Of a DNA stretch of 64,000 nt, positions 367-47,729 are shown piece by piece. Every line of letters starts with the position of its first letter. The first letter of the stretch is position 1. Source of the DNA: Nitrospirota bacterium (GTDB lineage Bacteria > Nitrospirota > UBA9217); contig CAWCKW010000013.1 of assembly GCA_963796285.1 (NCBI GenBank), forward strand, positions 64,001-128,000, read 5' to 3'. Both the position numbers and the translations under genes were made by a program. The notes below the pieces were generated by a model. That model saw only the letters and a program-made list of their open reading frames with translations, did not search any database and was not told the origin of the DNA.

Positions 367-726
367 TTACTCACCTCCAATGTGAAGCAGCTTGTCGGTT
401 TTGACCGTCTTGGCCAAGTACCAGTCCATGCTGGCACGTTTCATTCCCGCCGGGGCATCTTCCTTGTGATAACCACGAGCCTCTGCGCAGGCTTCGCACA
501 CGGTTATCTCCATTCCTTTTCCGATCAGTTCCATCATCTTTTTCTCGAGGTGCGAGTAATCTTTGAATGATTTCTGCCCCTTCTTGGCCATCATCACGGC
601 ATTGCCCGAAAGCCACATGTTCACTTTGTGCCCTTTGGCCATCCCTGCATCGGCAATCTTGAATGCGAAATCAAGCGACATCGAGCCGACCAGAGAGGGG
701 AAAACTCCTAATGTTAATTCTCCCAT
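367..726 (-). CDS. dsrE: DsrE/TusD-like sulfurtransferase subunit
   Basis: 119 aa, GHKVNMWLSGNAV and VCEACAEARG (conserved active Cys region); AGGAGG RBS. Confidence 0.75.
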   Translation of the reverse strand: MGELTLGVFPSLVGSMSLDFAFKIADAGMAKGHKVNMWLSGNAVMMAKKGQKSFKDYSHLEKKMMELIGKGMEITVCEACAEARGYHKEDAPAGMKRASMDWYLAKTVKTDKLLHIGGE

Positions 727-791
727 TGTAACCTCCTTTTAAATTTTCGATGGACGATCGATGATTCTTCGTTCCTCGGGCTGATCAAATC

Positions 792-1091
792 TTACAGCCA
801 TGCCGTCTTCTCGTAATCGTTCATGATGAGATCGACGATGTCACCGTAGCTGATGACCTTTACCTTGGAATTGACCTGCGCCGCTGTGTATCCCCGCGTC
901 TCGAGGTCATCCGACAGAACATAGAAGCTTGCGCCGGCCTGTGAGAGTACTGGTGAATCCTTGCCATTCTCCTTCGTCACCGCATGGTAGATCCCGTTTG
1001 CCACCAGGATGACCCCCAGCTTATCGGCTTTCAGTCTCTCGAGGGTGTTTTCGGTCCTTCTCCAGTCGCTTAAAAATACCGCTAACTTCAT
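792..1091 (-). CDS. dsrH: DsrH/TusB-like sulfur relay protein
   Basis: 99 aa, LVANGIYHAV...YVLSDDLETRG...ISYGDIVDLI, typical DsrH/TusB; GGAGGTG RBS. Confidence 0.8.
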   Translation of the reverse strand: MKLAVFLSDWRRTENTLERLKADKLGVILVANGIYHAVTKENGKDSPVLSQAGASFYVLSDDLETRGYTAAQVNSKVKVISYGDIVDLIMNDYEKTAWL

Positions 1092-1120
1092 ATTCTCACC
1101 TCCCCAAAGCGTTTTTTGAT

Positions 1121-1155
1121 AAAAAAACAGGGGATAATTTATTCAACTATCCCCT
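1121..1155 (-). terminator. Intrinsic terminator between ferredoxin and dsrH
   Basis: Minus strand AGGGGATAGTTG-AA-TAAATTATCCCCT followed by GTTTTTTT. Confidence 0.7.
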
Positions 1156-1178
1156 TCGTATGAGTCTATGTTGCGTGA

Positions 1179-1364
1179 CTATATTTCAGCTACCGTAATC
1201 GCCTGCTGCGGGCAGTTCTCAACGCAGGTCAGACAATTTATGCACTCGGACATGTTCGCAGGATCGGCTTTACCGCCATCCAGCTTGAACACCGACTGCG
1301 GGCAGACGTTCACACAGGTGCCGTCGCCGTCACACTTGTTTGTATCGATCGATACCATATACAT
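1179..1364 (-). CDS. Small dicluster-type ferredoxin
   Basis: 61 aa, CDGDGTCVNVCP (second Cys replaced by Asp) and CINCLTCVENCP; GGAGGAGG RBS. Confidence 0.9.
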   Translation of the reverse strand: MYMVSIDTNKCDGDGTCVNVCPQSVFKLDGGKADPANMSECINCLTCVENCPQQAITVAEI

Positions 1365-1534
1365 AATTACTCGTTCCTCCTCCCGTCAGTTATCGTACTA
1401 CACTATTCGGCATCACCTGTCCTTCGCCAGAGAGAAGCACCCGGCAACCATAAATGGTCATGGCACCCGACGCGTGGACACAATGCGACCGTTATAGCAC
1501 CTTCCGGTACCCGAAACAGTGGTCCTGAATCGGT

Positions 1535-1870
1535 CTAGACGCAGCCTGTCGGTTTGGGAAGACCGGCGATTTTGCATGCCTGCTTTGCAGGGCCGCCCGG
1601 ATAGAGCTCATAGAGATACTTGGTATTGCCCTTTTCTGCGCCCAGCTTCTTGCCGATCTCTTTCACGAGGATCTTGATCATCGGCGCGATCTGGTACTGC
1701 TTGTAATAATCGCGCAGGAAGTTCACGACCTCCCAGTGCTGCTCGGTCATATCAATACCCTCGACCTGTGCGAAGTAATTCGCCACATCCATGCTCCAGT
1801 CATCCAGATTCGCCAGGAATCCATCTTCATCCACTTCGATCGTTTTGCCTTTTACGTCTACTGTTGCCAT
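1535..1870 (-). CDS. dsrC: DsrC sulfur-carrier protein
   Basis: DEDGFL, HWEVVNFLR, C-terminal ACKIAGLPKPTGCV with both conserved Cys. Confidence 0.97.
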   Translation of the reverse strand: MATVDVKGKTIEVDEDGFLANLDDWSMDVANYFAQVEGIDMTEQHWEVVNFLRDYYKQYQIAPMIKILVKEIGKKLGAEKGNTKYLYELYPGGPAKQACKIAGLPKPTGCV

Positions 1871-1970
1871 TGTTTGTTTCCCCTTTCGTTAAAATAAAAT
1901 ATAAATTGGACGCGGTTTCAGCGCCCGTCTCTTTGCTGTTTTTTTAACGGTACAGTCATACCGGTCAGCC

Positions 1971-2336
1971 TCATTTTGTCATCACCTTGATCATATAGAG
2001 CCGGGCGTTCCCATCCATGAATCCCTGCGGTTCACCGGAAGAACGGTGCAGCTTCAGATCGTAGCTGAGGATCGCATCCTCGTAATCTTCTCCTGCTGCC
2101 ATGTCGGAAATGTCCTTTGACAATTTGTCAGCGGCAAAACCAAGCCCCTGCATCATTACTTCACCCACATTTTTGCTCGTAGGATCGACAATATACAGTG
2201 CGCCGCATGAACCGCAAGTGCCTCCAAGAACACTCTCAGTGTTACTGATGTCCATCTTCGACGGCCGTGCGAGCGTTGCCTTGCAGAATGGACAGTGCGG
2301 CTCTCTGCCTTCCCGTGTTCTTTCCTTCAAATCCAA
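1971..2336 (-). CDS. Hypothetical protein with two CxxC motifs (putative Zn/Fe-binding)
   Basis: 121 aa, CPFC...CGSC; packed 9 bp after dsrN inside the dsr operon; TTG start. Confidence 0.75.
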   Translation of the reverse strand: MDLKERTREGREPHCPFCKATLARPSKMDISNTESVLGGTCGSCGALYIVDPTSKNVGEVMMQGLGFAADKLSKDISDMAAGEDYEDAILSYDLKLHRSSGEPQGFMDGNARLYMIKVMTK

Positions 2337-2345
2337 TCCTGCCTT

Positions 2346-3743
2346 CTACGCTTCCTGTTCAGAGCACCGGTACTCACGTGCCTTCCTGACCATTGCCTCG
2401 GCCCACTCAGGCGTCCCCAGCGCATGGAGGTGAGTATAGCAGGCAAGAACATTTTTATACACCAGTCCATCGGCTGTGCCGTTGATCCCTCCACCGCGTT
2501 TCATATGATACCCCATCGGTGGCATGTTATCAAGTGTCTTTACCCGGGAATAGTGAAACTCATGCCCCCGGATAATGACCCCCTTGTCAAGGAACGGACT
2601 TGCACATTCAACATGCAGCACGGTATATCCATGCGCCTGCGGCCGTTGTTCAAGAACAAAATCGACCGGAAATACCGATGCCATGGGATAGACCGTCTCT
2701 TTGACCTTCAAACTTCTGCCGAGGTAAATCAAACCACCACATTCAGCATAAATGGGAAGCCCCTGTTCAGCGGCCTGCCTGACCGATCGGCAGAAACTTT
2801 CGTTCCCCGCCAATTCAGCGGCCTGTGTTTCCGGAAAGCCTCCGCCTATATACAGGGCATCGATATCGGGCAACGCAATGTCTTTCAGAGCATTTATGAT
2901 CTTAAGTCGGGCGCCCTGCCCTTCGAGTGCTTCTAAATTATCAGGATAATAAAACTGAAATGCAGTATCTCTAATAACCCCAATGACTGGATACTTGTCG
3001 TCTTCCGCCTGCCGGGTCGTTGATATAACCGGTTTCAGCGCATCAAGATCCGGTGTATCGCAGGCGATGTTCCACAGGGAATCGAGATCAAGGTACTGTT
3101 CGGCTAGCACTGCCGCGGCGGCTATTGCCTGCTCCACCTCGGGATGTTCGTGAAAGGGCGTAAGCCCCATATGCCGCTCGGGGAACCCGCCTTTTCTCTG
3201 GCGCGGTATTGAGCCGACAACGCGCAGGCCGGTGCGCTGCTCAACGGCCTGCCTGATTACGGTTTCATGCCGTCCCGGAGATACGTTGTTGAGAATGATC
3301 CCCCTGAGAGCTACCCCGGGGTCATACTGCTGGCATCCCAGAACAACTGCTCCGACCGTGCTCGATGCCTTAGTTCCATCAACAATGAGCACCACCGGCG
3401 TTTTCAGAAGCTGCGCCAATCGTGCAGTACTGTAGGTCCCCGACCCATCTACACCATCGTAGAGGCCCCGGTTGCCTTCAATCACCGCTACATCCGCACC
3501 AACGGTGTGCTTTCCAAATGACCGCAGGATGCTTTCCTGCTCCATCATGAAAAGATCGAGATTATAACAGGGCCGGCCGGCTGCTGCGCCGAGCCAACCT
3601 GCATCGATAAAATCAGGGCCTTTTTTAAATACTGCTACCCGCCTGCCCTGCTTGCGCCATGCAGCGGTAATACCAATCGCAAGGGTTGTCTTTCCCAACC
3701 CGCCGCGGGTGGCTGAAATCGCCAGCCTCGGTAGCGTCGGCAT
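2346..3743 (-). CDS. dsrN: Cobyrinate a,c-diamide synthase-like siroheme amidase DsrN
   Basis: GKTT, FKKGPDFID, EGNRGLYDG, glutamine amidotransferase AECGG and GHEFHYS; located in dsr operon. Confidence 0.9.
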   Translation of the reverse strand: MPTLPRLAISATRGGLGKTTLAIGITAAWRKQGRRVAVFKKGPDFIDAGWLGAAAGRPCYNLDLFMMEQESILRSFGKHTVGADVAVIEGNRGLYDGVDGSGTYSTARLAQLLKTPVVLIVDGTKASSTVGAVVLGCQQYDPGVALRGIILNNVSPGRHETVIRQAVEQRTGLRVVGSIPRQRKGGFPERHMGLTPFHEHPEVEQAIAAAAVLAEQYLDLDSLWNIACDTPDLDALKPVISTTRQAEDDKYPVIGVIRDTAFQFYYPDNLEALEGQGARLKIINALKDIALPDIDALYIGGGFPETQAAELAGNESFCRSVRQAAEQGLPIYAECGGLIYLGRSLKVKETVYPMASVFPVDFVLEQRPQAHGYTVLHVECASPFLDKGVIIRGHEFHYSRVKTLDNMPPMGYHMKRGGGINGTADGLVYKNVLACYTHLHALGTPEWAEAMVRKAREYRCSEQEA

Positions 3744-3979
3744 TATGCCTGCGGATTGGCCGAGCCTTCCGTATGCGGAATCTCTACGGCAGTTCCGCCG
3801 AAATACGAATACACCAGCTTGCCGCCGTCGATCAGCACGCGAAGCGCGGCCTTCGTTTCAGCCTGGGTCGCCCCTTCCGCCTCCATGGCATTGCTGATGT
3901 CCTTGGGCTTCAGCTTCTTTTTGCCCTGGCTCTTTTCAACAAGCGCGTAAACTTTTTTTTGCAGTTCTTCAGCATCCAT
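3743..3979 (-). CDS. dsrD: DsrD (DsrAB activator, winged helix)
   Basis: 78 aa Lys-rich small protein directly after dsrB; KKKLKPKD...LIDGGKLVYSYFGGT. Confidence 0.85.
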   Translation of the reverse strand: MDAEELQKKVYALVEKSQGKKKLKPKDISNAMEAEGATQAETKAALRVLIDGGKLVYSYFGGTAVEIPHTEGSANPQA

Positions 3980-4014
3980 ATTCTCACCCCTCTGCTTAGG
4001 TTATTCACATCACC

Positions 4015-4047
4015 AAAAAACCGGCCCCGGTCTCTTACCGGGGCCGG
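4015..4047 (-). terminator. Intrinsic terminator-like hairpin between dsrB and dsrD
   Basis: Minus strand CCGGCCCCGGT-AAGAG-ACCGGGGCCGG-TTTTTT (11-bp perfect stem plus U-tract). Confidence 0.8.
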
Positions 4048-4062
4048 CATGACGTTATACCA

Positions 4063-5137
4063 CTATTCCCACTTGAAGGTCGGGGTCATTCTGAACGTAT
4101 CGCGTGCAAAGGTGAAATCATCGATATGCATCTGAGTGAACGCAATCCCGGTCATCTTGAAGAACCGCTCCCAGCCTATGCGCTCGATCCACTCGCCCAC
4201 ACGTTCATGCTTGCTGTGCATCCTTGGCATAGACCTCTACCAGGTGCTTAACAGCCTTCACAACCTCGGGCCAGCGCGGAGGATTATTGGGAAGGAACGG
4301 GATGGCAAGCTTGGACATGCGCGCCGGTCCACGTGCGTTCGACACCTTGCCGCCGACCCAGATGGAGATACCATCGCCGGTCGCATCCGCGAGCGGGAGC
4401 GAGGGGCACATGGTGTAGCAGTTACCGCAATACATGCAGCGCTCTTCTTTGATCTTCACGGACTTCGCAGCCGGGTTCGGGGCGATGGCACCCGTAGGAC
4501 ATGACGCGATAGTCGTCGGGATCTCGCACTGGTTCGCGATGGTCGCCTCATTCACCTTCGGCGGCTTGCGGTGAATGCCGAGGATGGCAATGTCGGAGCA
4601 ATGCACAGCGCCGCACATGTTGAGACAGCAAGCGAGCGCGATCCTGACGCGTGCCGGAAGTGTCTTCGTAGTAAAGTACTCATGCAGTTCATCCATCACG
4701 GCTTTCACAACACCGGAAGCGTCAGTTGCCGGGGTGTGGCAGTGGACCCAGCCCTGCGTGTGTACAACGTTGCTGATTCCGTAGCCGATGCCGCCGGTCA
4801 GGTGGCCGCGCTTCTTGAGTTCGGCCTGGAGCGGCTCCACCTGCGTTTTGGCGGGAAAGAACTCGACGTTGTTACGCGTCGTGAACCGCAGATGCCCGCC
4901 GGAGAATTTATCGGCGATCTCGCATAGCTCACGGATAAAATCGCTGCTCACGAGACGGGGTGATGCCATGCGCACGGTATAGAGTTCGTCTCCGGTCTCG
5001 GAAACATGCTTCATCGCTCCTTTGTTGATGATTTCATGGTACTTCCATTTCCCGTAGTTCTTTGCGATCACGGGAGGCAAAAATTTGCTAAAGTGAGGAG
5101 CTCCAATATCGGTTATTCTCTTCGGTTTGTCAGCCAT
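4063..5137 (-). CDS. dsrB: Dissimilatory sulfite reductase beta subunit (apparent +1 frameshift near 4213)
   Basis: [37 protein letters not shown]. The conserved C-terminus [18 protein letters not shown]...FKWE* continues in another frame to TAG at 4063-4065; span is 3n+1. Confidence 0.95.
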
Positions 5138-5157
5138 TATAAGTTATCCTCCTTAAG

Positions 5158-6337
5158 TTATTTCACGTCTTCCGGTGACCAGAATACGTACGGGTTCGAC
5201 CTGGGGGCTTTCACCATCTGCGGTACTGCCTTGAGACCGGTTGAATCAAGCATGGACTTCATGCCCATACGGTCGACGAGTTCGCCGATACGCTCGCGGT
5301 TCTTGCCGTGGTCATCCCACCATTCCCACAACTTGCGGATAAGCTCTTCCAGGTTATCGTACGGCTTCTCAAGCTTCATGAAAGGAACGATGACCCAGCT
5401 CATGAGAGCGCCGGTCACGATCGGGGCTTTGCCGCCGAGCATAATGGTCGCGCCTTGCTCTTTTCCTGGGCGCAACGCCTTCGGCATCAGGTTGATGCAG
5501 TGCATGCAACGAACGCAATCCTCGTCGTTGATCTTGAGCGCGCTGCCGTCGAAGCTCATGCATTTCGTCGGACACATGCCGACGATCTCCTCGGCGATAT
5601 TCATGCTCTTGGAATAATTCTTCACCTCGGCCTGGTCGATCCGGATGGAGTCTCTCCACGTGCCGATGATGGACATGTCGGCGCGGGCAATGGCAGGCGA
5701 CGCAGTCGTTGGCGCAGCCCGAGACCTTGATCTTGAACTTGTAGGGGAACGCGGGACGATGGAGCTCATCCTGGAACTTGTGGGTGAGCGTATCGCAGAT
5801 TTCCATGGTGTCGATGTTCGCGAACTCGCAACGGGATTTACCGGCACAGCAGCTCGGGGTACGGAGGCAGGAGCCGGAGCCGCCGAGGTCCCAGCCCTTT
5901 GCCGTTGTTTCCGCAAAGATGGCTTCAAGCTTGTCGGTCTGCGTACCGAGGAGCACCAGGTCGCCTGTTGATCCGTGCATGTTCGTCAGGCCGCTGCCGT
6001 ATTTGTCCCAGATATCCATAAGCTCACGGAGCGCGCTCGACGTGTAATAGAAACCTGCGGGCTGGTTGATACGAACGGTGTGGAAATGAGCGACGCCCGG
6101 GTATTCTTCCGGGAGGTCACAGTAACGGCCGATAACGCCGCCGCCGTAACCAAGCACGCCCACAATCCCGCCGTGCTTCCAGTGGGTTACCTTATCCCTA
6201 TATGATCTTTCAAGGATATTGAGCAGATCCTTCGCCGTATTACTCTTTTCTGCGGCCTTCTTGATCTCTTTTACGAAACTTGGCCATGCGCCTTTTTCTA
6301 GTTCGTCAAGCATCGGTGTCTTACCATCTTTGCTCAT
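5158..6337 (-). CDS. dsrA: Dissimilatory sulfite reductase alpha subunit (apparent +1 frameshift near 5696)
   Basis: [53 protein letters not shown], then in a shifted frame [14 protein letters not shown]...CVRCMHCIN...PRSNPY; span is 3n+1. Confidence 0.95.
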
Positions 6338-28960: not shown

Positions 28961-29078
<118 letters not shown>

Positions 29079-29154
29079 AACCTTATGGTAATGTTTGACA
29101 CTGAATATGCAAGGATTACTTCGAAAAGCCGAATCTGTCAGAAGCAAAAAATTA

Positions 29155-32157
<3,003 letters not shown>

Positions 32158-32264
32158 CCAAAATCTGCTTCTGGCAGATTCGGCGTTTCTTGATTTTTCG
32201 CCTCAGCTTTTCTTGTATTCTTGCATATTCAGTTGTCAAAGAACAATCCCGAGCTACGCTCGGG

Positions 32265-32324
32265 AATTCAAAATTCAAGATTCAATACTCAAATACTTGA
32301 ATGTTGAATTTTTAATTTTGAATT
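32265..32324. repeat. Inverted heptamer tandem-repeat element (AATTCAA) in rRNA ITS
   Basis: AATTCAA-AATTCAA-GATTCAA-TACTCAA / TTGAATG-TTGAATT-TTTAATT-TTGAATT. Confidence 0.8.
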
Positions 32325-32327
32325 ATT

Positions 32328-32403
32328 TGGTGGAGCTGAGCGGGATCGAACCGCTGACCCCCTGCTTGCAAAGCAGGTGCTCTCCCAGCTGAGCTACAGC
32401 CCC
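32328..32403 (-). tRNA. tRNA-Ala(TGC)
   Basis: GGGGCTGTAGCTCAGCTGGGAGAGCACCTGCTTTGCAAGCAGG...CTCCACCA, 76 nt. Confidence 0.98.
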
Positions 32404-32462
32404 TTGATAACGTCAAACTCCAAAATTCAAGTGAGATACTCGAACTCAGATTTTGTTGTAAG

Positions 32463-32539
<77 letters not shown>

Positions 32540-32683
32540 GTTTCGTTCAGGCTCAGGACTTTTCCCGGGGGTAAAGCTCCGAGCCCATGCCTATAGCCCT
32601 GAGCAACGCTCATGGTCCTTCAAAACTAAATAGGTGATGGCGGAACGACCTGGATGAGAGGTTACCAAGGTAACCCCTGATTC

Positions 32684-34254
<1,571 letters not shown>

Positions 34255-37847: not shown

Positions 37848-38606
37848 ATGTCGTACCAGATAAAGCTGGAGATCTTTGAAGGCCCAATGGACCTTCTCCT
37901 GCACCTGATCAAAAAGCACGAACTCGATATCTACTCCATCCCCATCGCACTCATCACCCAGCAGTACCTCGAATATATCGACCTCATGAAGAGCCTCGAC
38001 ATGGAGATCGCGGGCGAGTTTCTGGTGATGGCATCCACGCTCACTCACATCAAATCCAAGATGATGCTGCCGCCGTCCGAGAACCCCGACAGCGATGACG
38101 ACGGTCTGGATCCCCAGGCCGAGCTCATTCGACGGCTCCTCGAATACAAGAGCTACAAGGAAGCGGCACTATCGCTCGAGGACAAGGAAGAAACCTGGTC
38201 ACAGGTGTACACACGGCCTGCCGATGCCTCACTTGACCTCCCGGCCGACGATGAACCCCTGCTCTTCGACTTTCACCTTTTCGATCTGCTCGCGGCGCTC
38301 AAAGACGTCATGGCGCGGGTGCCTGATGCCAATTTCGAGATCACGGCCGATACCGTATCGATCACCGAGAAGATCTCCCAGATCCTGTCGCGACTTGAGT
38401 CCGTGGACAGCATGCTCTTCGCGGACCTCTTCGAGGGGAGCACGTCCAAAGCCCAGGTGATCGGCACGTTCCTGGCGCTCCTCGAGCTGGTCAAGACCCG
38501 GGTGGTCAAGGCGTTCCAGGTCGAGCAATTCGGTGCGATCCGGATCATGAAAGCCGTAAACGATCGGCAGAACCGGGACACTGCAACGGGAAATCTGTTC
38601 GGATAG
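37848..38606 (+). CDS. scpA: Segregation and condensation protein A (SMC kleisin)
   Basis: FEGPMDLLLHLI, EFLVMASTL..IKSKMMLP, FLALLEL, Q.EQFG.I. Confidence 0.95.
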   Translation: MSYQIKLEIFEGPMDLLLHLIKKHELDIYSIPIALITQQYLEYIDLMKSLDMEIAGEFLVMASTLTHIKSKMMLPPSENPDSDDDGLDPQAELIRRLLEYKSYKEAALSLEDKEETWSQVYTRPADASLDLPADDEPLLFDFHLFDLLAALKDVMARVPDANFEITADTVSITEKISQILSRLESVDSMLFADLFEGSTSKAQVIGTFLALLELVKTRVVKAFQVEQFGAIRIMKAVNDRQNRDTATGNLFG

Positions 38607-38650
38607 CAGCGACAGCTGTCAAGCCTCCAAGCTGGCAAGCTGATTCAATT

Positions 38651-39502
38651 ATGAAACCCGACATCAAAGCACTTGCGCAAGCAAAAAAATTCGGCGACAT
38701 CGAAACCGCGATCTATGCAGACCGAACGCTCATCGGCGATCTCGTTGTACTCCTCGCTGAAAAGGATGGCGACGTCCGGTCCGGTGTGCTGAACCTGCTG
38801 TCGCGCGTCGGGTTCGACTTCCCGAACGACACCCGGCAGCACCTGCCGACCTTGATCGCGCTGCTCGACGACCCTGATATGTTCATCAAGATCGACGCGG
38901 CGAACGCGGTCGGTAACCTGGGTTTCAGCTTCAAGGATGCGGCTGCCAAAGCTGCCCCAAAGTTGAAGCTGCTCCTGAATCATGAGCAGAGTCTCGTGCG
39001 TCAGGAAGCGGCCTACGCCCTCGGAAACATCGGTTTCGCCCATACGGACCTTGTGAAGGATGCGGTCCCCCGGTTGATCCAGATGCTCGAAGGGGGCGAT
39101 GACGATGAACGCGAGTCAGCCGCTCATGCCCTGGGCAAGGTAGGCATCAACGCGCCGGAGCTGATCAGGGGGATCCTTCCTAAACTCGTGGAGGTGCTCG
39201 AGTTCTCGAAAGAGGCGACCTGTGGAGGCGTGCTCTTTGCCCTGGGCGCCATCGGCCTGCATTATCCCCGGGAAGTGGCGAGCCTGGTGCCGCGGCTGAT
39301 CCAGTATCTGGACAGCGGCAACCCGAACGCGGTCAAGAACGCGGTGGCCGCACTCGGGAACATCGGCAGCTCCCGCCCGGAGCTCGTCAAGGACGCGATC
39401 CCAAAAATCAGAAAGATCATGGAGACCACGACGGACATTGACGTAAAGATGAACACCAAGGTGGCGCTTGGAAGACTGGGCGACCCCTCGGCGATGGAAT
39501 GA
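38651..39502 (+). CDS. HEAT-repeat protein (7 repeats, 37-aa period)
   Basis: Repeats begin at L31, L68, L105, L142, L179, L216, I253 (P.L..LL.......R..A..ALG.IG). Confidence 0.9.
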   Translation: MKPDIKALAQAKKFGDIETAIYADRTLIGDLVVLLAEKDGDVRSGVLNLLSRVGFDFPNDTRQHLPTLIALLDDPDMFIKIDAANAVGNLGFSFKDAAAKAAPKLKLLLNHEQSLVRQEAAYALGNIGFAHTDLVKDAVPRLIQMLEGGDDDERESAAHALGKVGINAPELIRGILPKLVEVLEFSKEATCGGVLFALGAIGLHYPREVASLVPRLIQYLDSGNPNAVKNAVAALGNIGSSRPELVKDAIPKIRKIMETTTDIDVKMNTKVALGRLGDPSAME

Positions 39503-39598
39503 AACCGTTTTGAGTTATTAGTCCATCGATTCGATCGTCGTTTCACAACTCAAAGCTGAACACTCTAAACTCATAACTTTTTTTGAGGTTTTTTAAAA

Positions 39599-40282
39599 TT
39601 GGAAGATCATCAACTGAAATCAGCGATCGAGGCGCTCGTTTTCTCCTCGGGCAATCCCCTGTCCCTGGACCGGCTCAAAGCTATCTTTGAAGAGGCAACA
39701 GCCGAGCAGATCATGGAACAAGTCCGGCTGCTTCAGCAGGAATACATCGACCGAGGATCGGGTCTTATGCTGGCCGAAGTCGCCGGCGGATACCAGCTCG
39801 CAACGCGGCCGGAGCACTTCGAATGGATACGGAAATTCAAGACCGTAAAAACAACAACCAGACTCTCGAAGCCCGCGCTCGAGACCCTCGCCATTGTGGC
39901 GTATAAGCAGCCCATCACCCGCTCGGAAGTGGAAGCGATCCGCGGCGTGAACATCGGCGGCATCATGAGAAACCTCATGGAGCGACGCCTTGTGAAGATC
40001 GTGGGCAAGAAGGACGTGCCGGGCAAACCCATGATGTACGGAACCACGCTGGATTTCCTCCAGTACTTCGGTTTGAACGATCTCTCAGCCCTCCCGACGC
40101 TCAAGGAGTTCCAGGAGCTTGAGGCAGGAGAGGAAGTCATGGAAGAGGTACCCCTTGTTGAGGAAGAGAACTCAGATGCATCCTCATCCGAGGATACGGC
40201 CTTAGAAGAGGCGTTGTCCCCAGAGGCGGCTGAACCTGAAACACTGACAGCAGCCTCAACCGAGGAGAACGTGTCAGGATGA
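39599..40282 (+). CDS. scpB: Segregation and condensation protein B
   Basis: IEALVF, VAGGYQLAT, LSKPALETLAIVAYKQPITRSEVEAIRGV, YGTT..FL.YFGL..L..LP; acidic tail; TTG start. Confidence 0.95.
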   Translation: MEDHQLKSAIEALVFSSGNPLSLDRLKAIFEEATAEQIMEQVRLLQQEYIDRGSGLMLAEVAGGYQLATRPEHFEWIRKFKTVKTTTRLSKPALETLAIVAYKQPITRSEVEAIRGVNIGGIMRNLMERRLVKIVGKKDVPGKPMMYGTTLDFLQYFGLNDLSALPTLKEFQELEAGEEVMEEVPLVEEENSDASSSEDTALEEALSPEAAEPETLTAASTEENVSG

Positions 40283-41223
40283 TCGAGCTCAAGGATGCTT
40301 TGCGCAAAAAAGAAATTTGGGCCATCGGCGGCGGCAAGGGTGGGATCGGCAAAAGCCTGATCACGGGGAACATCGGCATCACCCTCGCGCGCCTTAAGAA
40401 AAAGGTCCTGCTGGTGGACGCGGACCTGGGAGGAGCGAACCTTCACACCACGCTCGGTATCGGCGTCCCGCAGATGACGCTCTCCGATTTTCTTGACCAT
40501 CGTGTCAAGACCATCCAGGAAGTTATTATCAAGACAGGCATCCCGAACCTGAGCCTCGTCAGCGGCGCCCAGGACTTCCTCGACGCGGCCAACCCGAATT
40601 TTGCTCAGAAAACGCGCCTGCTGAGACACCTCGAGACGCTGGATGCGGATTACATTCTCCTCGACCTCGGTGCGGGCACCTCGTTCAACATCCTCGATTT
40701 TTTCCTATTCTCGGACCACGGCATCCTCGTGGTGCTGCCCGAGCCTACGGCCATTGAGAACGCCTACCGATTCATCAAGAGCGCCTTCTACCGCAGGTTC
40801 AAAAGGGTGGTGGTGAATCAGAATATCAAGGACCTTATCGATGCGGCCATGGACCAGAAGAACACCATGGGCATCCGCACCCCCTACGACCTGATCGAAC
40901 GCGTGAAGCTGATGGAGCGGGAGGTGGGCGAGATCCTCGAACTCGAAGTCATGAAATTCCGTCCCAAGCTGATCGTGAACCAGGTGAGGACCAAGAACGA
41001 CATCCAGATCGGGTTCTCGATGAAAAGCGCCTGCCAGAAATACTTCGGTATCAATGTTGATTATCTTGGCTATGTGGAATACGATGATTGTGTATGGCAG
41101 TCCATCAGGAGCAAACGGCCGCTCATGATCGAGTACCCCTTCTCACGGCCATCACGCTGCATTGAGCGGATCGTCCACAACCTGCTCAGGAAAGAGCAGC
41201 TGACGCTCAGCATGCTCTATTAG
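40279..41223 (+). CDS. MinD/FlhG(FleN)-like P-loop ATPase
   Basis: Deviant Walker A GGKGGIGKS, DADLGGANL, DLGAG, PEPTAIENAY; ATGA overlap with scpB. Confidence 0.9.
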   Translation: MIELKDALRKKEIWAIGGGKGGIGKSLITGNIGITLARLKKKVLLVDADLGGANLHTTLGIGVPQMTLSDFLDHRVKTIQEVIIKTGIPNLSLVSGAQDFLDAANPNFAQKTRLLRHLETLDADYILLDLGAGTSFNILDFFLFSDHGILVVLPEPTAIENAYRFIKSAFYRRFKRVVVNQNIKDLIDAAMDQKNTMGIRTPYDLIERVKLMEREVGEILELEVMKFRPKLIVNQVRTKNDIQIGFSMKSACQKYFGINVDYLGYVEYDDCVWQSIRSKRPLMIEYPFSRPSRCIERIVHNLLRKEQLTLSMLY

Positions 41224-41234
41224 GGGAGGTTCGT

Positions 41235-41945
41235 ATGATCAAAAAGATAGAAGACCTGAACTACTACGAACTGCTGGAGGTCAGTCCCCGGGCAACCTCC
41301 CAGGAAATCCACAAGGCCTACGAACGGGTCCGGCGAGTGTACGAACCGAATTCCATGGCGCTCTATTCGCTCTTCAGTCCCGAAGAGTCCGCGATCATTA
41401 CCCAGCGGATAGAAGAAGCTTACCGGACCCTTGTGTATGATGACAACCGAAAACGGTACGATGCCCTCTTGCGAGGACAGGACGAACTGCCTGAGTTGCC
41501 GCTACTCCCGTCTGAGCCGGAATACGAGCCTCGTCCTGTTGAGCCGACACATCATCCTCGCCATGCTCAGTCGACCCTCACGCTGCCGTCGGAGAACCGC
41601 TACATTACCGCTCCGGAATTGCCTTTCCAGCAACCAATCCCTCAAAATAATGTGCGCGAGCCAATTTCGCCGGTCTCCCAGTTCATTGCGGATTTTACCG
41701 GACCCGCCATCAAGATGCTGAGAGAGCAACACAGCCTGACGCTGCGGAATATCGCTGATATGACAAAGATCGGAACGCGATACCTCGAATGCATCGAAGA
41801 TGAAATATATGATAAACTGCCTGCCCGTGCCTATATCCGGGGGTTCCTCATGCTCTATGCTAAGGCCCTCGGCTGCGAACCCGAGCGGATGGCAAGCGAC
41901 TATCTCAAGCGCTATGATGCAGCGAAGAATCCACCGAAAAAGTAA
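41235..41945 (+). CDS. J-domain-like plus RodZ/Xre-type HTH protein
   Basis: NYYELLEVSP.A...EI..AY...I.EAY.TL.....R..YD (no HPD); C-terminal LRE...L....IA..TKI...YL..IE......LP...Y.RGFL..YAK.LG. Confidence 0.85.
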   Translation: MIKKIEDLNYYELLEVSPRATSQEIHKAYERVRRVYEPNSMALYSLFSPEESAIITQRIEEAYRTLVYDDNRKRYDALLRGQDELPELPLLPSEPEYEPRPVEPTHHPRHAQSTLTLPSENRYITAPELPFQQPIPQNNVREPISPVSQFIADFTGPAIKMLREQHSLTLRNIADMTKIGTRYLECIEDEIYDKLPARAYIRGFLMLYAKALGCEPERMASDYLKRYDAAKNPPKK

Positions 41946-42017: not shown

Positions 42018-45000
42018 CTACCGACTGCTGTCTACCGACTTTCTCAATTCCCTTTCCTTCCAGATCACATAGATCGCCGGATAGATAATGAGCTCCAGGA
42101 TCGTCGAGGTGATTACGCCGCCGACCATGGGCGCGGCAATGCGCTTCATCACGTCCGCACCCGTCCCGTTCGAGAACATGATCGGCACCAGGCCCGCCAG
42201 GATCACCGACACGGTCATGATCTTGGGCCGGATCCTCTTTACCGCACCTTCCATCACCGAGTCCTCGATATCGCGGAGCGAATGAATGTTACCCTCTGCC
42301 TTCCACTTGTTGTACGCGAGATCCAGATAAAGCAGCATCACGATCCCGGTCTCAGCATCGAGCCCGGCCAGGGCGATCACGCCGACCCAGACCGCGGTGC
42401 TCAGGTGGTACCCAAGAAAGTAGAGAAGCCAGACCGTGCCCACGAGCGAGAACGGCACCGCGAGCAGCACGATCGCGGTCTTGGTCCAGGACCCGGTGTT
42501 CAGGTAGAGGAGCACGATGATGATCAACAGCGTGAGCGGGATAACGTAGAAAAGTTTGGCTTTCACGTTCTCCATGTACTCGTACTGGCCGCTCCACTGG
42601 AGCCTGTACCCCGTCGGTACCTTGACATGCCCGGCAATGGCCTTCTTTGCCTGTTCAACGTATCCGCCGAAGTCGCTTCCGGATATGCTGAGAGTGACCG
42701 CCGCGGTCAGCATCCCTCCCTCGCTCTGTATCATGCCCGGTCCCCGTTTCACCTGAATGTCCGCAAGCTGTCCCAAAGGCACCTGGGCCCCGCCCATTAC
42801 CGGGACGAGGACCCGCTGCAGCTTTCCGATGTCGTCCCGCAGCTCGCGGCCATAGCGGATGTTCACGGGATAGCGTTCCCTGCCCTCGACCGTGGTCGTC
42901 AGGTTCATTCCGCCGATGGCCGACTGGATGACTTCCTGCACATCCTCGATGGTAAGCCCGTATCGGGCGATGGCGTCCCGGTTGATCGTGAAATCCAGGA
43001 AATATCCCGTGTTCGCCCGCTCGGCATAAGCGCTTCTCGTGCCCGGAACATCCTTGAGCGTCCGTTCCACATCGAGCCCGATACGCTCGATCTCGTCCAG
43101 ACGGGGCCCAAAGACCTTAATGCCGAGGGGAGTACGTATGCCTGTGGAGAGCATATCGATCCTGCCGATGATCGGCATGGTCCAGGTATTGGCTACACCG
43201 GGGACCGACAGGGCGCTGTCCAGCTCATCGCGTAGGTCCTCCCACTTCCTGAACTGGGGCCGCCACTCCTTTTCCGGCTTCAAATTCACGATGGTCTCGA
43301 ACATCTCCAGGGGTGCCGGGTCCGTGGGCGTCTCGGCCCGTCCTGCCTTGCCGAAGACCGACTCCACTTCGGGGAACTGCATCAGGATCCGGTCCTGGGC
43401 CTGGACCAGCTGCCCCACGGTGGTAATGGACGCGCCGGGCAAACTTGAGGGCATATAGAACAGCGTCCCTTCATACAGGGGCGGCATGAACTCAGACCCG
43501 AGTTTCATAAAGGGGATGATCGTAACGATCACAACAACGATGGCAGCAAGGATAACCGCTTTCCGCCAATGGAGGGAACATCCGGCCACGGGGTGGTAGA
43601 GCCTAATCAGAAAACGGCTGACCGGGTTATCATCCTCATGCCTGATCTTCCCCTTGATGAAAAGCGTCATCAGCACCGGTGTGAGCGTGATGGCCAGAAA
43701 GCTCGCAAAGAGCATCGAAAAGGTCTTGGTGTATGCCAGGGGTTTGAACAGCCTGCCCGCCTGGTCCTCGAGCGTGAATACCGGAAGGAACCCGACGGTG
43801 ATCACGAGGAGCGAGAAGAAGAGCGACGGCCCCACCTCTTTTGCCGCGTCAATGATCACGTCAACCCGCGATCCCGGCCTGCCCGCCGCTTCCCAGTCCT
43901 CGAGCTTCTTGTGGGCGTTTTCGACCATGATGATCGAGGCATCGACCATGGCGCCGATGGCGATGGCAATGCCGGACAGACTCATAATGTTCGAGCTGAT
44001 CTTTAGATAGTACATGCAGATGAACGAGATAAGGATCGCGATCGGCAGCGTCAGGATAACCACCAGGGCGCTAGGAAGATGAAACAGGAATATGATGCAA
44101 ACCACGCTCACGGCGATTCCGAGCTTGATCACCTCATCGCGGAGCGTATCAACGGACCGATGGATCAGCTCCGACCGGTCATAGGTGGTAATGATCTTCA
44201 CTCCTTCGGGCAGGGACGGCCTGATCTGCTTGATCTTCTCCTTCACCCGCTCGACAACAGCAAGTACGTTCTCGCCGAACCGGACCACCACGATGCCGCC
44301 CACGGCCTCGCCCTTGCCGTCGAAGTCAGCCAGACCGCGCCGGATTTCGGGGCCAAGCTGGACCGTGCCGACATCCCGGAGCAGGATTGGCGTTCCCTTT
44401 CCGTCGCCACCGACGGCGATCTTCTCAATGTCTGTTTTGTCCTTGATATATCCACGGCCGCGGACCATGTATTCGCGGCCCGACCACTCCACCACCCGTC
44501 CTTCGACATCACGGTTGCTTCTCCTGACCGCCTCCATCACCTTCATGAGCGGTAAATTGTAGGCGATCAGCCGGTTCGGGTCAACCGTGATCTGGTACTG
44601 CTTCACGAACCCGCCCACACTCGCGACCTCGGAAACGCCGGGCACGGATTCGAAAGCGTACTTGAGCGTCCAGTCCTGGAGCGACCGGAGCTGCGCGAGG
44701 TCTTGCTTGCCCGACTCATCCACCAAGGCGTACTGAAATCCCCAGCCAACGCCTGTGGCATCCGGCCCGAGAAGCGGAGCCACTCCGGCGGGAAGTTTGC
44801 CCTGCACACCCTGGAGGTACTCGAGCACCCGGCTCCGCGCCCAGTAGATGTCCGTACCGTCCTCGAAGATGGCATAGACGAAGGACAGGCCGAGGAAGGA
44901 CTTGCCTCGCACGGCCCGAACCTTCGGCGCGGCAAGAAGGGTGGAGACGATGGGATAGGTGATCTGGTCCTCGACCAGGTCCGGACTCCTTCCGGGCCAG

Positions 45001-45155
45001 TCGGTGAACACGATCACCTGGACATCGGAAAGATCGGGGATCGCGTCGAGTGGCGTATGGAACACCGCCCAGATGCCCCAGATCGTGAGGAAACCCACGA
45101 GGAGGAATACCAGGAACTTATTTCGCGCTGAGAGCTCTATGATTTTGGCAAGCAT
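42018..45155 (-). CDS. cusA: CusA/CzcA-family heavy-metal RND efflux transporter
   Basis: PLDAIPDLSDVQVIV, GPDATGVGW, GAMVDASII, RIRPKIMT; 1045 aa. Confidence 0.93.
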   Translation of the reverse strand: MLAKIIELSARNKFLVFLLVGFLTIWGIWAVFHTPLDAIPDLSDVQVIVFTDWPGRSPDLVEDQITYPIVSTLLAAPKVRAVRGKSFLGLSFVYAIFEDGTDIYWARSRVLEYLQGVQGKLPAGVAPLLGPDATGVGWGFQYALVDESGKQDLAQLRSLQDWTLKYAFESVPGVSEVASVGGFVKQYQITVDPNRLIAYNLPLMKVMEAVRRSNRDVEGRVVEWSGREYMVRGRGYIKDKTDIEKIAVGGDGKGTPILLRDVGTVQLGPEIRRGLADFDGKGEAVGGIVVVRFGENVLAVVERVKEKIKQIRPSLPEGVKIITTYDRSELIHRSVDTLRDEVIKLGIAVSVVCIIFLFHLPSALVVILTLPIAILISFICMYYLKISSNIMSLSGIAIAIGAMVDASIIMVENAHKKLEDWEAAGRPGSRVDVIIDAAKEVGPSLFFSLLVITVGFLPVFTLEDQAGRLFKPLAYTKTFSMLFASFLAITLTPVLMTLFIKGKIRHEDDNPVSRFLIRLYHPVAGCSLHWRKAVILAAIVVVIVTIIPFMKLGSEFMPPLYEGTLFYMPSSLPGASITTVGQLVQAQDRILMQFPEVESVFGKAGRAETPTDPAPLEMFETIVNLKPEKEWRPQFRKWEDLRDELDSALSVPGVANTWTMPIIGRIDMLSTGIRTPLGIKVFGPRLDEIERIGLDVERTLKDVPGTRSAYAERANTGYFLDFTINRDAIARYGLTIEDVQEVIQSAIGGMNLTTTVEGRERYPVNIRYGRELRDDIGKLQRVLVPVMGGAQVPLGQLADIQVKRGPGMIQSEGGMLTAAVTLSISGSDFGGYVEQAKKAIAGHVKVPTGYRLQWSGQYEYMENVKAKLFYVIPLTLLIIIVLLYLNTGSWTKTAIVLLAVPFSLVGTVWLLYFLGYHLSTAVWVGVIALAGLDAETGIVMLLYLDLAYNKWKAEGNIHSLRDIEDSVMEGAVKRIRPKIMTVSVILAGLVPIMFSNGTGADVMKRIAAPMVGGVITSTILELIIYPAIYVIWKERELRKSVDSSR

Positions 45156-45165
45156 GAAGTACCTC

Positions 45166-45282
45166 AGTTCGGAGTGCGGAGTTCGGAGTGCGGAGTGATA
45201 GCAGGCTGCGTAGAGAGCCTCCGTTGATTCAACTTCCGTTTCATTCGTTCATTCCGCACTCGCCACTCCGCATTCCGCATTT
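45166..45282. repeat. Inverted heptamer tandem-repeat element (AGTGCGG / TCCGCA(C/T))
   Basis: Left arm AGTTCGG-AGTGCGG-AGTTCGG-AGTGCGG; right arm ATTCCGC-ACTCGCC-ACTCCGC-ATTCCGC; same unit at ~20400-20428 and ~60980-61003. Confidence 0.8.
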
Positions 45283-45285
45283 GTC

Positions 45286-46482
45286 CTACTGTCCGGACTG
45301 CAGCTGGCTCTCCGAGTCGATCAGGAAGTTGCCCGAGGTGACCACGCGCTCGCCCTTCTTGATCCCCGTAAGCACCTCAACCTCGTTCTCACCGCGCACG
45401 CCGAGCGTCACCTTGCGCATCTCGAAGACACCTGGTTCTTTTTCCACATACACGATCTGGCGCGTACCGGAATCCAGCACCGAGCTTCGGGGGATGACAA
45501 GCCTGGCGTGGGAAGAGGTCATGATTTCGACATTCACATACATGTCCGGTTTGAGAACAAGTCCCGGATTTTGCACAGCGATCCGTACCTTGACCGTTCG
45601 AGTCATGGGGTCAAGCACCGGGTTGATGAAGCTCACCGTTGCGTGCAGCACCTCGCCCGAAGAGTACGGCACGGTCACCCGCGCCTTCTGGCCGACCTTC
45701 ACGAGAGGGACCTCATATTCATAAACGTCCGCGATGATCCAGACCGTGGAAAGGTCCGCGATCTTGAACAGGTTCATTCCCGGCGTGATATAGGTGCCGT
45801 CGAGCACCATCTTTTCAAGCACAATGCCGTTCAGCGGGGCATGGATGGTCATTTCCGTACTTGTTTTTCCCGTCTTCTCGATCCCCGCGATCTGCTCCTC
45901 CGTGATGTCCCACAGAATCAACCTGCGCTTCGCGGAATCGATCAACGATTGCTGGGATGCCTGGACCTCCGCAATGCCTCCTGAAATCGCGGTCCGTGCC
46001 CGCAGGGCCAGCAAGTACTCCTCCTGGGCAGAGACCAGGTCGGGGCTGTAGATCGAAAGGAGCGGCTGCCCCTTGACGACCCGATCTCCGGTAAAGTTCA
46101 CGAATAATTTTTTGACCCATCCGGCTATCTTCGTGTTCACGAACGCGAGCCGGGTCTCGTTGACCTCTACCTTCCCCACGGTCCGGATCTGCTTGTCCAG
46201 CGTGCGAAACCCGGCTGCTGCGGTCCGCACCCCGATCAGCTGGCGCTTATCCTCTGAGATAGTTATGGTCGGCGCTGCTTCCGCCTGCACGGATGCCGGG
46301 GGAGTCTGCGCCTGTGTTGCCGTTGCCGCGCTTTGTGTTTTGGTCCCGTGGGCCGAATGGTCCTGGTTCTGGGCCAGTGCCGTCGTCCCCGGTACGATCA
46401 GGAGGACCAGGACGAGTGCATATGGCAACGGGTAAATTGAAACGTGCATATTTTTCAGTGTCCGCGATTTTGCATTTTTCAT
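45286..46482 (-). CDS. cusB: CusB-like periplasmic adaptor
   Basis: IYSPDLVSAQEEYL, IADLSTVW, TRTVKVR, SGNFLIDSES. Confidence 0.9.
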   Translation of the reverse strand: MKNAKSRTLKNMHVSIYPLPYALVLVLLIVPGTTALAQNQDHSAHGTKTQSAATATQAQTPPASVQAEAAPTITISEDKRQLIGVRTAAAGFRTLDKQIRTVGKVEVNETRLAFVNTKIAGWVKKLFVNFTGDRVVKGQPLLSIYSPDLVSAQEEYLLALRARTAISGGIAEVQASQQSLIDSAKRRLILWDITEEQIAGIEKTGKTSTEMTIHAPLNGIVLEKMVLDGTYITPGMNLFKIADLSTVWIIADVYEYEVPLVKVGQKARVTVPYSSGEVLHATVSFINPVLDPMTRTVKVRIAVQNPGLVLKPDMYVNVEIMTSSHARLVIPRSSVLDSGTRQIVYVEKEPGVFEMRKVTLGVRGENEVEVLTGIKKGERVVTSGNFLIDSESQLQSGQ

Positions 46483-47729
46483 TTTACGTCTTCTCCTGTC
46501 AGTTCTCCGATCATGGAAAGGGTCTTGTGCAGAGACGTCAGCTCTTCCTGTTCCATCAACTGATACTTGAGCAAAAGGCTGTTGCTGTCCAGGAGGTTAA
46601 AAACATCTGTCTTCCCCACCCGGTAGTTCGCGGTGGTGGACTGGAGCGCCAGGGTCGCCTGCGGTATGATGCCCGTTTCGTAAAGATGAAGATGGTGCTC
46701 CGAGGTCTTTGCCGTGACATAAAGCTCCCGCACCCGCGCCAGAACGGAGAGCTGAGCGTTGTTGTAATCGTATCGGGACGACTGCAGGTCCGCATTCGCT
46801 GCCTTCACGCCGGTGGACTTGTTCCAGAAATAGAGCGGGACCTTGAACATAACGCTCGCCTGCCACACATCCGACTTGTCGCCCCGCGTGAACCATCCGC
46901 CGGACAGGACGAGATCGGGCAGAAACTCCTTCTTCCGGGAAGAGACCTCGAACTCGCCCTGCTCAACCATCCGCTGTTTTCCCTGGAGCAGCGGCGAATG
47001 GGCCTGCGCCATGGCAGCAAGGTCCTCGATGCTTTTCTCCAGAGAAATCCGGGGGAGCTCGGCGGGTTTGCCCAAGGGCGCCAGGGGATCTCGGCCAACG
47101 AGTCGGTTTATCATGGACGCCTGCGTCTCCGTCTTGCGTTCTTCCTCCGCTATCTTGTCCAAAAGCATCAGGACCTCGAGCTGCGCGCGGAGGACGTCCT
47201 GCTGCATTCCCTGGCCGGTCCCATACCGGGTCTCGGCGATCTGCTGAACGTTCTGCATCAGGTCCTTGGTCCGGGTGAAGATCTCAGTAGAGCGGTAGGC
47301 CAGGTAGTATTCATAGTAGGCGTTCCGGAGTTCTGCTAGAACCCGAAGCTGCATCTCCCGCGCGTTCTCATGTTCACGCTCGGCCATTTTTCCCGCAGCA
47401 TGGCCCATGGTCGTGAGCTTGCCCGGGAACGGGACCTCCTGCGAGAAGACAATGCCCTGCATGCTCATATCTTCCTTGCCCACGCTCCAGGCGACCGGCG
47501 ACCCGACGTTCTGGACCATATAACCGATCATCGGGTCGGGCATGGCCGCGGCAAGGGACCTTTTCTCGTCTGCGGATTCTGCTTTCTTATCCACCATGCG
47601 GATCTCGGGGTTGTTCTGCAAGGCCTCCTGCTCGAGGTCTTTCAGCGTTACCACGCCGTCATCTGCCCGTGCATGCGCGGGAAACAGAATGCCCACAACG
47701 ATCAGCAGGCTCGTCAGTGTTCTCTGCAT
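46479..47729 (-). CDS. TolC/CusC-family outer-membrane efflux protein
   Basis: Signal peptide, AL.NNP.I, Q..PFPGK, two OEP repeats; in operon with cusBA. Confidence 0.88.
   Translation of the reverse strand: MQRTLTSLLIVVGILFPAHARADDGVVTLKDLEQEALQNNPEIRMVDKKAESADEKRSLAAAMPDPMIGYMVQNVGSPVAWSVGKEDMSMQGIVFSQEVPFPGKLTTMGHAAGKMAEREHENAREMQLRVLAELRNAYYEYYLAYRSTEIFTRTKDLMQNVQQIAETRYGTGQGMQQDVLRAQLEVLMLLDKIAEEERKTETQASMINRLVGRDPLAPLGKPAELPRISLEKSIEDLAAMAQAHSPLLQGKQRMVEQGEFEVSSRKKEFLPDLVLSGGWFTRGDKSDVWQASVMFKVPLYFWNKSTGVKAANADLQSSRYDYNNAQLSVLARVRELYVTAKTSEHHLHLYETGIIPQATLALQSTTANYRVGKTDVFNLLDSNSLLLKYQLMEQEELTSLHKTLSMIGELTGEDVK

Follow-up and report, generated by a model that had tools for sequence, protein, structure and literature searches.

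What is a gene for a HEAT-repeat protein doing between the kleisin and KITE genes of a bacterial Smc-ScpAB system? The gene in question was found in a 64-kb stretch of chromosomal DNA from a Nitrospirota bacterium (contig CAWCKW010000013.1; this whole stretch is referred to here as the window), where it separates scpA from scpB. SMC complexes built with HEAT proteins associated with kleisins (HAWKs) are, according to the portions available of PMC10512200 and PMC5228436, known from eukaryotes only, and prokaryotic complexes use KITEs. A search of the literature, including the available portions of PMC5228436, PMC10512200, and bioRxiv 10.1101/2024.01.07.573240, turned up no bacterial scpAB cluster described as encoding a HEAT protein. 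The HEAT gene is a genuine one that is old in its clade and under tight constraint, and the locus is best filed as an scpAB operon variant with a candidate fourth component. The explanation tentatively favored here, at a probability of roughly 0.4, is that the HEAT protein acts as a lineage-specific accessory or adaptor, co-expressed with ScpAB and with a MinD-like ATPase and a DnaJ-helix-turn-helix (DnaJ-HTH) protein encoded downstream, and that it binds a segment of a partner along a conserved face of its B helices.

The gene belongs to a five-gene plus-strand cluster in the order scpA-HEAT-scpB-minD-like-dnaJ/HTH (positions 37848 to 41945), defined by open reading frame (ORF) calling, Pfam, and NCBIfam. 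The kleisin gene scpA (37848 to 38606) encodes 252 amino acids (aa), of which residues 20 to 233 match Pfam SMC_ScpA (PF02616; E = 7.1e-40, 137.9 bits against a cutoff of 24.6); scores against NCBIfam models of segregation/condensation protein A were 168 to 226 bits, below the strict equivalog cutoffs. A 44-bp spacer (38607 to 38650) leads to the HEAT gene (38651 to 39502; 283 aa), and a 96-bp spacer (39503 to 39598), which carries a conserved GAGG ribosome-binding site, leads to the TTG start of scpB (39599 to 40282; 227 aa). ScpB matches SMC_ScpB (PF04079; E = 3.9e-55, 186.3 bits against a cutoff of 27.4) and TIGR00281 (140.6 bits against a cutoff of 89.2), and it consists of two winged-helix domains and an acidic tail. 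A conserved LPTLKEFQELEAGEEVMEEVP segment is followed by the variable acidic tail, which ends in ENVxG.

Apart from an N-terminal cap, the HEAT protein is made of seven 37-aa two-helix repeats with the signature D-x-x-V-R-x-x-A-A-x-A-L-G-x-I-G. Pfam HEAT_2 (105.8 bits against a cutoff of 27.7; E = 1.4e-30) and HEAT_PBS (43 bits against a cutoff of 20.9) both score above their cutoffs, and Pfam Arm matches at 62 bits. Autocorrelation scored with BLOSUM62 was 0.79 at a lag of 37 residues, 0.56 at 74, and 0.44 at 111, whereas none of 300 shuffles exceeded −0.13, and DNA self-matches within the gene are spaced 111, 222, and 333 nucleotides apart. The AlphaFold2 model (mean predicted local distance difference test, pLDDT, 91.3; predicted template-modeling score, pTM, 0.85) places seven helix pairs after the cap, with B helices beginning at residues 40, 77, 114, 151, 188, 225, and 263, and describes a short, rigid alpha-solenoid. 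This period is unusual. Among 73 other HEAT proteins of at least 220 aa taken from the homologue search, 72 had periods of 30 to 33 aa (33 aa in 48) and one had 34 aa, with none at 37 aa; the 31- to 33-aa PBS-lyase-type period is not matched, and alignment to alphaRep places the extra length in a B-to-A loop six residues longer. The original prediction, made from the sequence alone, had described exactly this: seven HEAT repeats in 283 aa with an exact 37-aa period longer than the common bacterial type, encoded by a gene that follows scpA by 44 bp and precedes scpB by 96 bp, all on one strand. The autocorrelation and the model, the ORF coordinates, and the comparison set at 30 to 34 aa bear out each of these points. 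One variant, P0001, is a 240-aa protein without one 37-aa repeat (about residues 96 to 132), with an identity of 80% in the multiple alignment and 66% by BLASTP across the whole query; the missing repeat may be a real deletion or an assembly collapse.

A genome scan with ScpB as the query returned 40 loci, of which 33 (in the range L001 to L031, plus L036 and L040) form a tight clade of Nitrospirota species known as metagenome-assembled genomes and have the MinD-like and DnaJ-HTH genes downstream in common. The original prediction had named a survey of gene neighborhoods, in search of unlinked homologues in related genomes, as a check on itself, and the linkage holds: the HEAT gene is the immediate upstream neighbor of scpB in 28 of the 30 informative clade loci, and in 27 of the 28 that include scpA it separates scpA from scpB in the five-gene order seen in the window. 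Three loci (L010, L026, and L040) start too near scpB for the presence of HEAT to be scored. In L028, the C terminus of HEAT stands at a contig edge, and L011 and L031 have frame breaks resembling assembly errors, while all intact copies in related loci (n = 25) are 281 to 283 aa long. Farther afield, when 1.84 billion representatives were searched exhaustively without a profile, 16,934 HEAT proteins emerged at an E value of ≤1e-3, but only three likely orthologues of the same architecture, P0088 (279 aa, 46% identity), P0091 (282 aa, 43% identity), and P0133, a fragment. All three retain the peculiar motifs of the Nitrospirota HEAT family and are known from metagenomes only. The very small number of orthologues in a first, word-based homologue search was set aside as an artifact of word crowding by HEAT repeats, as revealed by the genome scan.

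Linkage is accompanied by constraint. In a comparison of 22 taxa (231 pairs), mean identity was 91.5% for the MinD-like protein, 86.0% for HEAT, 82.2% for ScpA, 73.4% for ScpB, and 60.2% for DnaJ-HTH, with HEAT better conserved than ScpA in 192 pairs and better than ScpB in 230. The median ratio of nonsynonymous to synonymous substitution rates (dN/dS) was 0.070 for HEAT, 0.096 for ScpA, and 0.156 for ScpB at a dS of about 1.1, where synonymous sites are near saturation; the MinD-like ATPase gene, at 0.047, was the most conserved of the cluster. These values show that the HEAT gene is under strong purifying selection. The HEAT tree also recovers four of the five well-supported groups of the flank tree, which fits vertical descent, and inheritance of the gene within the clade has been vertical. 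Under the explanation favored here, the gene would have come to separate scpA from scpB in the clade ancestor or close to it.

Of special interest is where this constraint falls within the protein. Invariant residues account for 85 of 112 positions in B helices (76%) and 44 of 101 in A helices (44%). Residues 149 to 222, covering repeats 4 and 5, are the most conserved (73 to 81% invariant), repeat 5 (SKEATCGGVLFALGAIGLHYP) is invariant yet deviates from the repeat signature, and the atypical segment LEFSKEATCGGVLFALGAIGLHY (residues 183 to 205) is identical in all 25 HEAT sequences. The B-helix face, presumably the concave one, is nearly invariant, above all in repeats 3 to 6, and such asymmetry is the pattern expected of a conserved binding face. 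Comparisons of sequence and fold suggest what kind of ligand the face could hold. The best PDB sequence matches of the HEAT family profile (the best 60 of 129 were considered) were alphaRep (6e-26), designed armadillo proteins, and importin-alpha, and the best Foldseek folds were peptide-binding designed armadillo proteins and importin-alpha at template-modeling (TM) scores of 0.47 to 0.64, with 5mfm, 5aei, and 3tj3 at 0.52 to 0.64 and E values of about 2e-9 to 6e-8. The armadillo fold differs in having three helices per ~42 aa, rather than two per 37 aa as in the AlphaFold2 model, and superposes at a root-mean-square deviation of 6 to 8 Å. The Asn of ALGNIG-type motifs recurs on the B helices of the HEAT protein as in armadillo proteins, and together with the armadillo-like fold it suggests that an extended peptide is bound. 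By analogy with armadillo and HEAT adaptors, the B-helix face may hold an extended segment of a partner. Prokaryotic HEAT_2/PBS-lyase-type proteins, the source of the alphaRep designs, have the repeat signature in common with the Nitrospirota family, and alphaRep is its best PDB sequence match, but their period is 30 to 34 aa instead of 37 aa.

An adaptor of this kind would be made together with its partners, and the HEAT gene most likely shares a transcript with scpA, scpB, and the MinD-like and DnaJ-HTH genes. No terminator-like site was found on the plus strand between scpA, the HEAT gene, and scpB, and the HEAT-scpB spacer contains only a weak promoter-like site (39542 to 39571, 9 of 12 matches). 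Across related loci this spacer keeps the GAGG and a TTGGAA, and the remainder is variable. Once bound, the HEAT protein could recruit or regulate Smc-ScpAB or its co-operonic partners, for example during loading or in the ATPase cycle. Partial correlations of pairwise distances for HEAT were 0.56 with ScpB, 0.35 with ScpA, and −0.24 with the MinD-like protein, from pairs that are not independent; this mirror-tree correlation with ScpB, then ScpA, is a weak lead only.

Conserved position can also arise without shared function. In this explanation, an ordinary bacterial HEAT scaffold with an SMC-unrelated role landed once between scpA and scpB and has since been kept by synteny inertia among closely syntenic genomes, with selection acting on that separate role. 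An unrelated passenger of this sort is nearly as likely as the adaptor, and the 16,934 database matches illustrate how common HEAT proteins are in prokaryotes. However, the gene splits two subunit genes that are adjacent in four of five outgroup loci and has persisted there while dS reached saturation, which a neutral insertion would not usually do. The upstream flank seen in the window (ribF, cbiX, and tyrS) was recovered in only 1 of the 19 loci whose upstream sequence reaches 3 kb or more and is rearranged in the other 18, yet no rearrangement breakpoint falls inside the five-gene cluster, the sole exception being a clean absence of HEAT in one lineage (L013 and L029). The HEAT gene is also more tightly constrained than the subunit genes on either side.

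Signatures of a mobile element, which would also suit a passenger, were not found. The original prediction had allowed for a passenger gene flanked on both sides by degenerate short-repeat elements, and these were not confirmed: Tandem Repeats Finder reported no repeats in 38500 to 39700, no direct or inverted repeat pairs bracket the HEAT gene, and the RNA folds of the 44-bp and 96-bp spacers were no better than those of shuffled sequences (z = −0.32 and 0.09, respectively). The HEAT protein had no phage match, and its plasmid matches were generic HEAT proteins only, at no more than 34% identity. An origin from a mobile element was rejected on this evidence, which leaves the weaker, synteny-inertia form of the passenger. 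Separately, GC-rich palindromic elements resembling repetitive extragenic palindromes (GCCACAGAGGACAC ... GTGTC..CGTGG type) occur in the HEAT-gene spacers of several relatives (L002, L003, L015, L018, L021, L022, and L036) and not in the window.

Several observations weigh against the adaptor reading, beginning with the loci that lack the gene. Five more distant loci (L032, L034, L035, L038, and L039) have no HEAT gene, and in all of these except L032 scpA directly adjoins scpB. Within the clade, two sister species (L013 and L029; ultrafast bootstrap support of 94) also lack it directly upstream of scpB: in L029, scpA is separated from scpB by 363 bp that hold no remnant of HEAT, and in L013 a 348-bp open low-complexity frame runs into scpB. 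Among columns that are otherwise invariant, L029 has changes in only 3 of 93 in ScpA, 1 of 82 in ScpB, and 5 of 207 in the MinD-like protein, and a comparison with other long-branch taxa found no excess of changes in these proteins or in DnaJ-HTH of the kind that decay of an interface would leave. Because the L013/L029 lineage keeps ScpA, ScpB, and the MinD-like protein well conserved, HEAT is not indispensable to them. A single loss in this lineage is favored, not proven, because L029 is nested within the clade in an outgroup-rooted tree but backbone support is weak (16 to 71).

The cluster and its proteins add further points on the same side. An unrelated, convergent three-gene resistance-nodulation-division (RND) efflux operon downstream (42018 to 47729, minus strand; AcrB/CusA-like, HlyD_D23, and OEP) is also kept in 26 of 33 clade loci, so the adjacency of HEAT among these relatives is partly inertia and weak evidence of function. 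Both spacers around the HEAT gene exceed the 4-bp scpB/minD-like overlap in length and vary more than it does, with the scpA-HEAT spacer ranging from 54 to 199 bp and unconserved in related loci, and the HEAT start often has no Shine-Dalgarno site there. By length, clade ScpA proteins (240 to 259 aa) carry no extra linker relative to those of the HEAT-less outgroups L035 and L038 (242 to 253 aa). Of 180 longer ScpA proteins, the 120 listed included no ScpA-HEAT fusion; of 450 longer ScpB proteins, the 120 listed included no ScpB-HEAT fusion; and no ScpA or ScpB domain was present in 25 mid-length HEAT matches. The protein is also acidic (isoelectric point, 5.6), which argues against DNA clamping. 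The retained RND operon, the HEAT-less sister species and outgroups, the loose spacers, and the missing fusions all speak for a passenger.

Two features of ScpB were inspected in the same loci. Its acidic tail was considered as a HEAT-dependent motif and dismissed as uninformative, since the HEAT-less L029 retains the tail. Upstream of the usual scpB start, L029 (7614 to 7976) and L013 (1 to 348) have an open frame of about 100 or more residues that is low in complexity, acidic, and Gln/Pro-rich, with a 318-aa ORF in L029 and no GAGG before the usual start. Judged from these frames, ScpB may have an N-terminal extension exactly where HEAT is absent. Among the distant loci, L034 and L035 have a class I Trp/Tyr-type tRNA synthetase gene followed by scpA and scpB, a common arrangement, and then a class IV aminotransferase gene (L034) or a pseudouridine synthase gene (L035); in L032, a glycosyltransferase gene lies upstream of scpB.

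If the HEAT protein does act with Smc-ScpAB, its position invites comparison with eukaryotic complexes. The original prediction had proposed a HAWK-like SMC subunit, and what stands of that proposal is a stable, selected member of the scpA-scpB cluster across the lineage, without specific likeness to HAWKs. A true HAWK-type subunit would bind the central region of ScpA beside ScpB, clamp DNA, and have a common ancestry with Scc3, Pds5, Ycs4, and Ycg1. The HEAT alpha-solenoid is indeed the fold of HAWKs (Scc3/SA, Pds5, Scc2/NIPBL, Ycs4/CAP-D2, and Ycg1/CAP-G), the gene adjoins a kleisin gene and stands between kleisin and KITE genes, and there are marginal Pfam matches to PDS5 (27.5 bits, cutoff 27) and Cnd1 (25.9 bits, cutoff 26.4). 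These matches are non-specific, because 23 of 25 unrelated prokaryotic HEAT proteins used as a control match Cnd1 at 45.8 to 118.9 bits, above both scores of the HEAT protein. No cohesin or condensin subunit appeared among the best 60 of 129 PDB sequence matches, and no such chain was among the 25 Foldseek matches listed; armadillo proteins, alphaRep, and importin-alpha were the best matches instead. HAWKs are about 1,000 aa in size, and the Nitrospirota protein, at about a quarter of that, is modeled as a straight solenoid and is encoded beside a KITE. In the available text of PMC10512200, HAWKs are large and hook-shaped and have their sites on long flexible kleisin linkers that KITE-type kleisins lack, as the ScpA found here does; that text and the accessible part of PMC5228436 report HAWKs from eukaryotes only, where they replace KITEs. 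The acidity of the HEAT protein is a further objection. Homology to HAWKs is not supported by these sequence and model comparisons, and a HAWK-type subunit is highly improbable. The HEAT protein would instead have joined a KITE-based complex by convergence, rather than through descent shared with the HAWKs of eukaryotes.

Convergence could in principle go as far as a four-subunit Smc-ScpAB holocomplex, an independent bacterial invention that would include the HEAT protein, beside the KITE ScpB, as a subunit with a stoichiometric or regulatory role. The docking partner of the conserved B-helix groove would then be ScpB, ScpA, or the arm of Smc. We regard such a holocomplex as unlikely. Modeling of ScpA, two ScpB chains, and HEAT from 25-row alignments returned a score of 0.00 against a mark of 0.32, for a four-chain assembly unlike those on which the tool was calibrated; by the rule of the tool, such a score speaks neither for binding nor against it. 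Pfam scans of window proteins found no smc gene within the 64 kb. A KITE-plus-HEAT arrangement has a precedent of architecture, which is its closest functional analogy: Nse6 of the eukaryotic Nse5/6 pair is, in the available portion of PMC10512200, a HEAT-repeat protein of the KITE-based Smc5/6 complex that is not hook-shaped and binds the head-proximal arm, and Nse5-6 inhibits the ATPase. The likeness is limited to a helical-repeat accessory on a KITE-based complex; no Nse5-like partner gene was seen, and no Nse6 chain was among the PDB sequence or Foldseek matches listed. If true, a four-subunit complex would offer a present-day counterpart of the Kite-plus-HEAT intermediate that the Nse6 and HAWK scenarios imply.

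Even under the adaptor reading alone, a HEAT gene that stays fixed in the genome between the kleisin and KITE genes, under tighter constraint than either of them, raises the question of whether bacterial KITE complexes accept helical-repeat accessories. Binding to Smc-ScpAB would bear on how Kite-to-Hawk replacement could start and on condensin regulation in a sulfur-cycling lineage, whereas a HEAT protein that does not bind would be a clean example of conserved synteny misleading.

Another set of possible partners comes from the MinD-like and DnaJ-HTH genes, both of them additions to the scpAB locus that are specific to the clade. The first (40279 to 41223) encodes a 314-aa MinD/ParA-like P-loop ATPase that matches Pfam ParA, AAA_31, and CbiA, scores below the cutoffs of MinD models, and overlaps the scpB stop by 4 bp, and the same −4-bp junction was measured in 27 of 29 clade loci. 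The second (41235 to 41945) follows the MinD-like gene in 33 of 33 clade loci and encodes a 236-aa protein with a DnaJ (J) domain (9.6e-10), a long, poorly conserved proline-rich linker, and a C-terminal HTH_25 (1.8e-17) that resembles the N terminus of RodZ. The HEAT protein might serve as an adaptor in a positioning or chaperone system with this co-acquired pair: all three genes are found in the same clade loci, neither partner gene is found in any of the five distant loci, the MinD-like protein is the sole cluster member more conserved than HEAT, and the proline-rich linker could supply a peptide ligand. However, L029 and L013 retain both genes without HEAT, scpB separates the HEAT gene from them, and the partial correlation of distances between HEAT and the MinD-like protein is weakly negative. 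An adaptor devoted to this pair is quite unlikely, and the broader adaptor reading, in which ScpAB is included, is preferred.

Two other affiliations were considered for the HEAT protein. It scores 61.9 bits against NCBIfam DVU0298 (NF045662) in three partial stretches, below the cutoff of 75. A role as an anti-phage defense component was rejected after a PADLOC search gave only weak partial matches (OloA, 27.1 bits; HEAT-ARM_XIII, 17.2 bits); in the same search, ScpA, ScpB, and the MinD-like protein had no match, and DnaJ-HTH matched only HTH_VI at 17.6 bits.

The remainder of the window, which is chromosomal DNA of a Nitrospirota bacterium, carries glycolysis and complex I genes. A complete rRNA operon (28961 to 34254, minus strand) contains 16S, tRNA-Ile(GAT), tRNA-Ala(TGC), 23S, and 5S genes. 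Near the start of the window, also on the minus strand, a dissimilatory sulfite reductase (dsr)-type cluster (370 to 6337) encodes two NIR_SIR proteins (dsrAB-like), DsrC, DsrE-like and DsrH-like proteins, and a CobB/CobQ-type amidase, which fits a sulfur-cycling Nitrospirota lineage.

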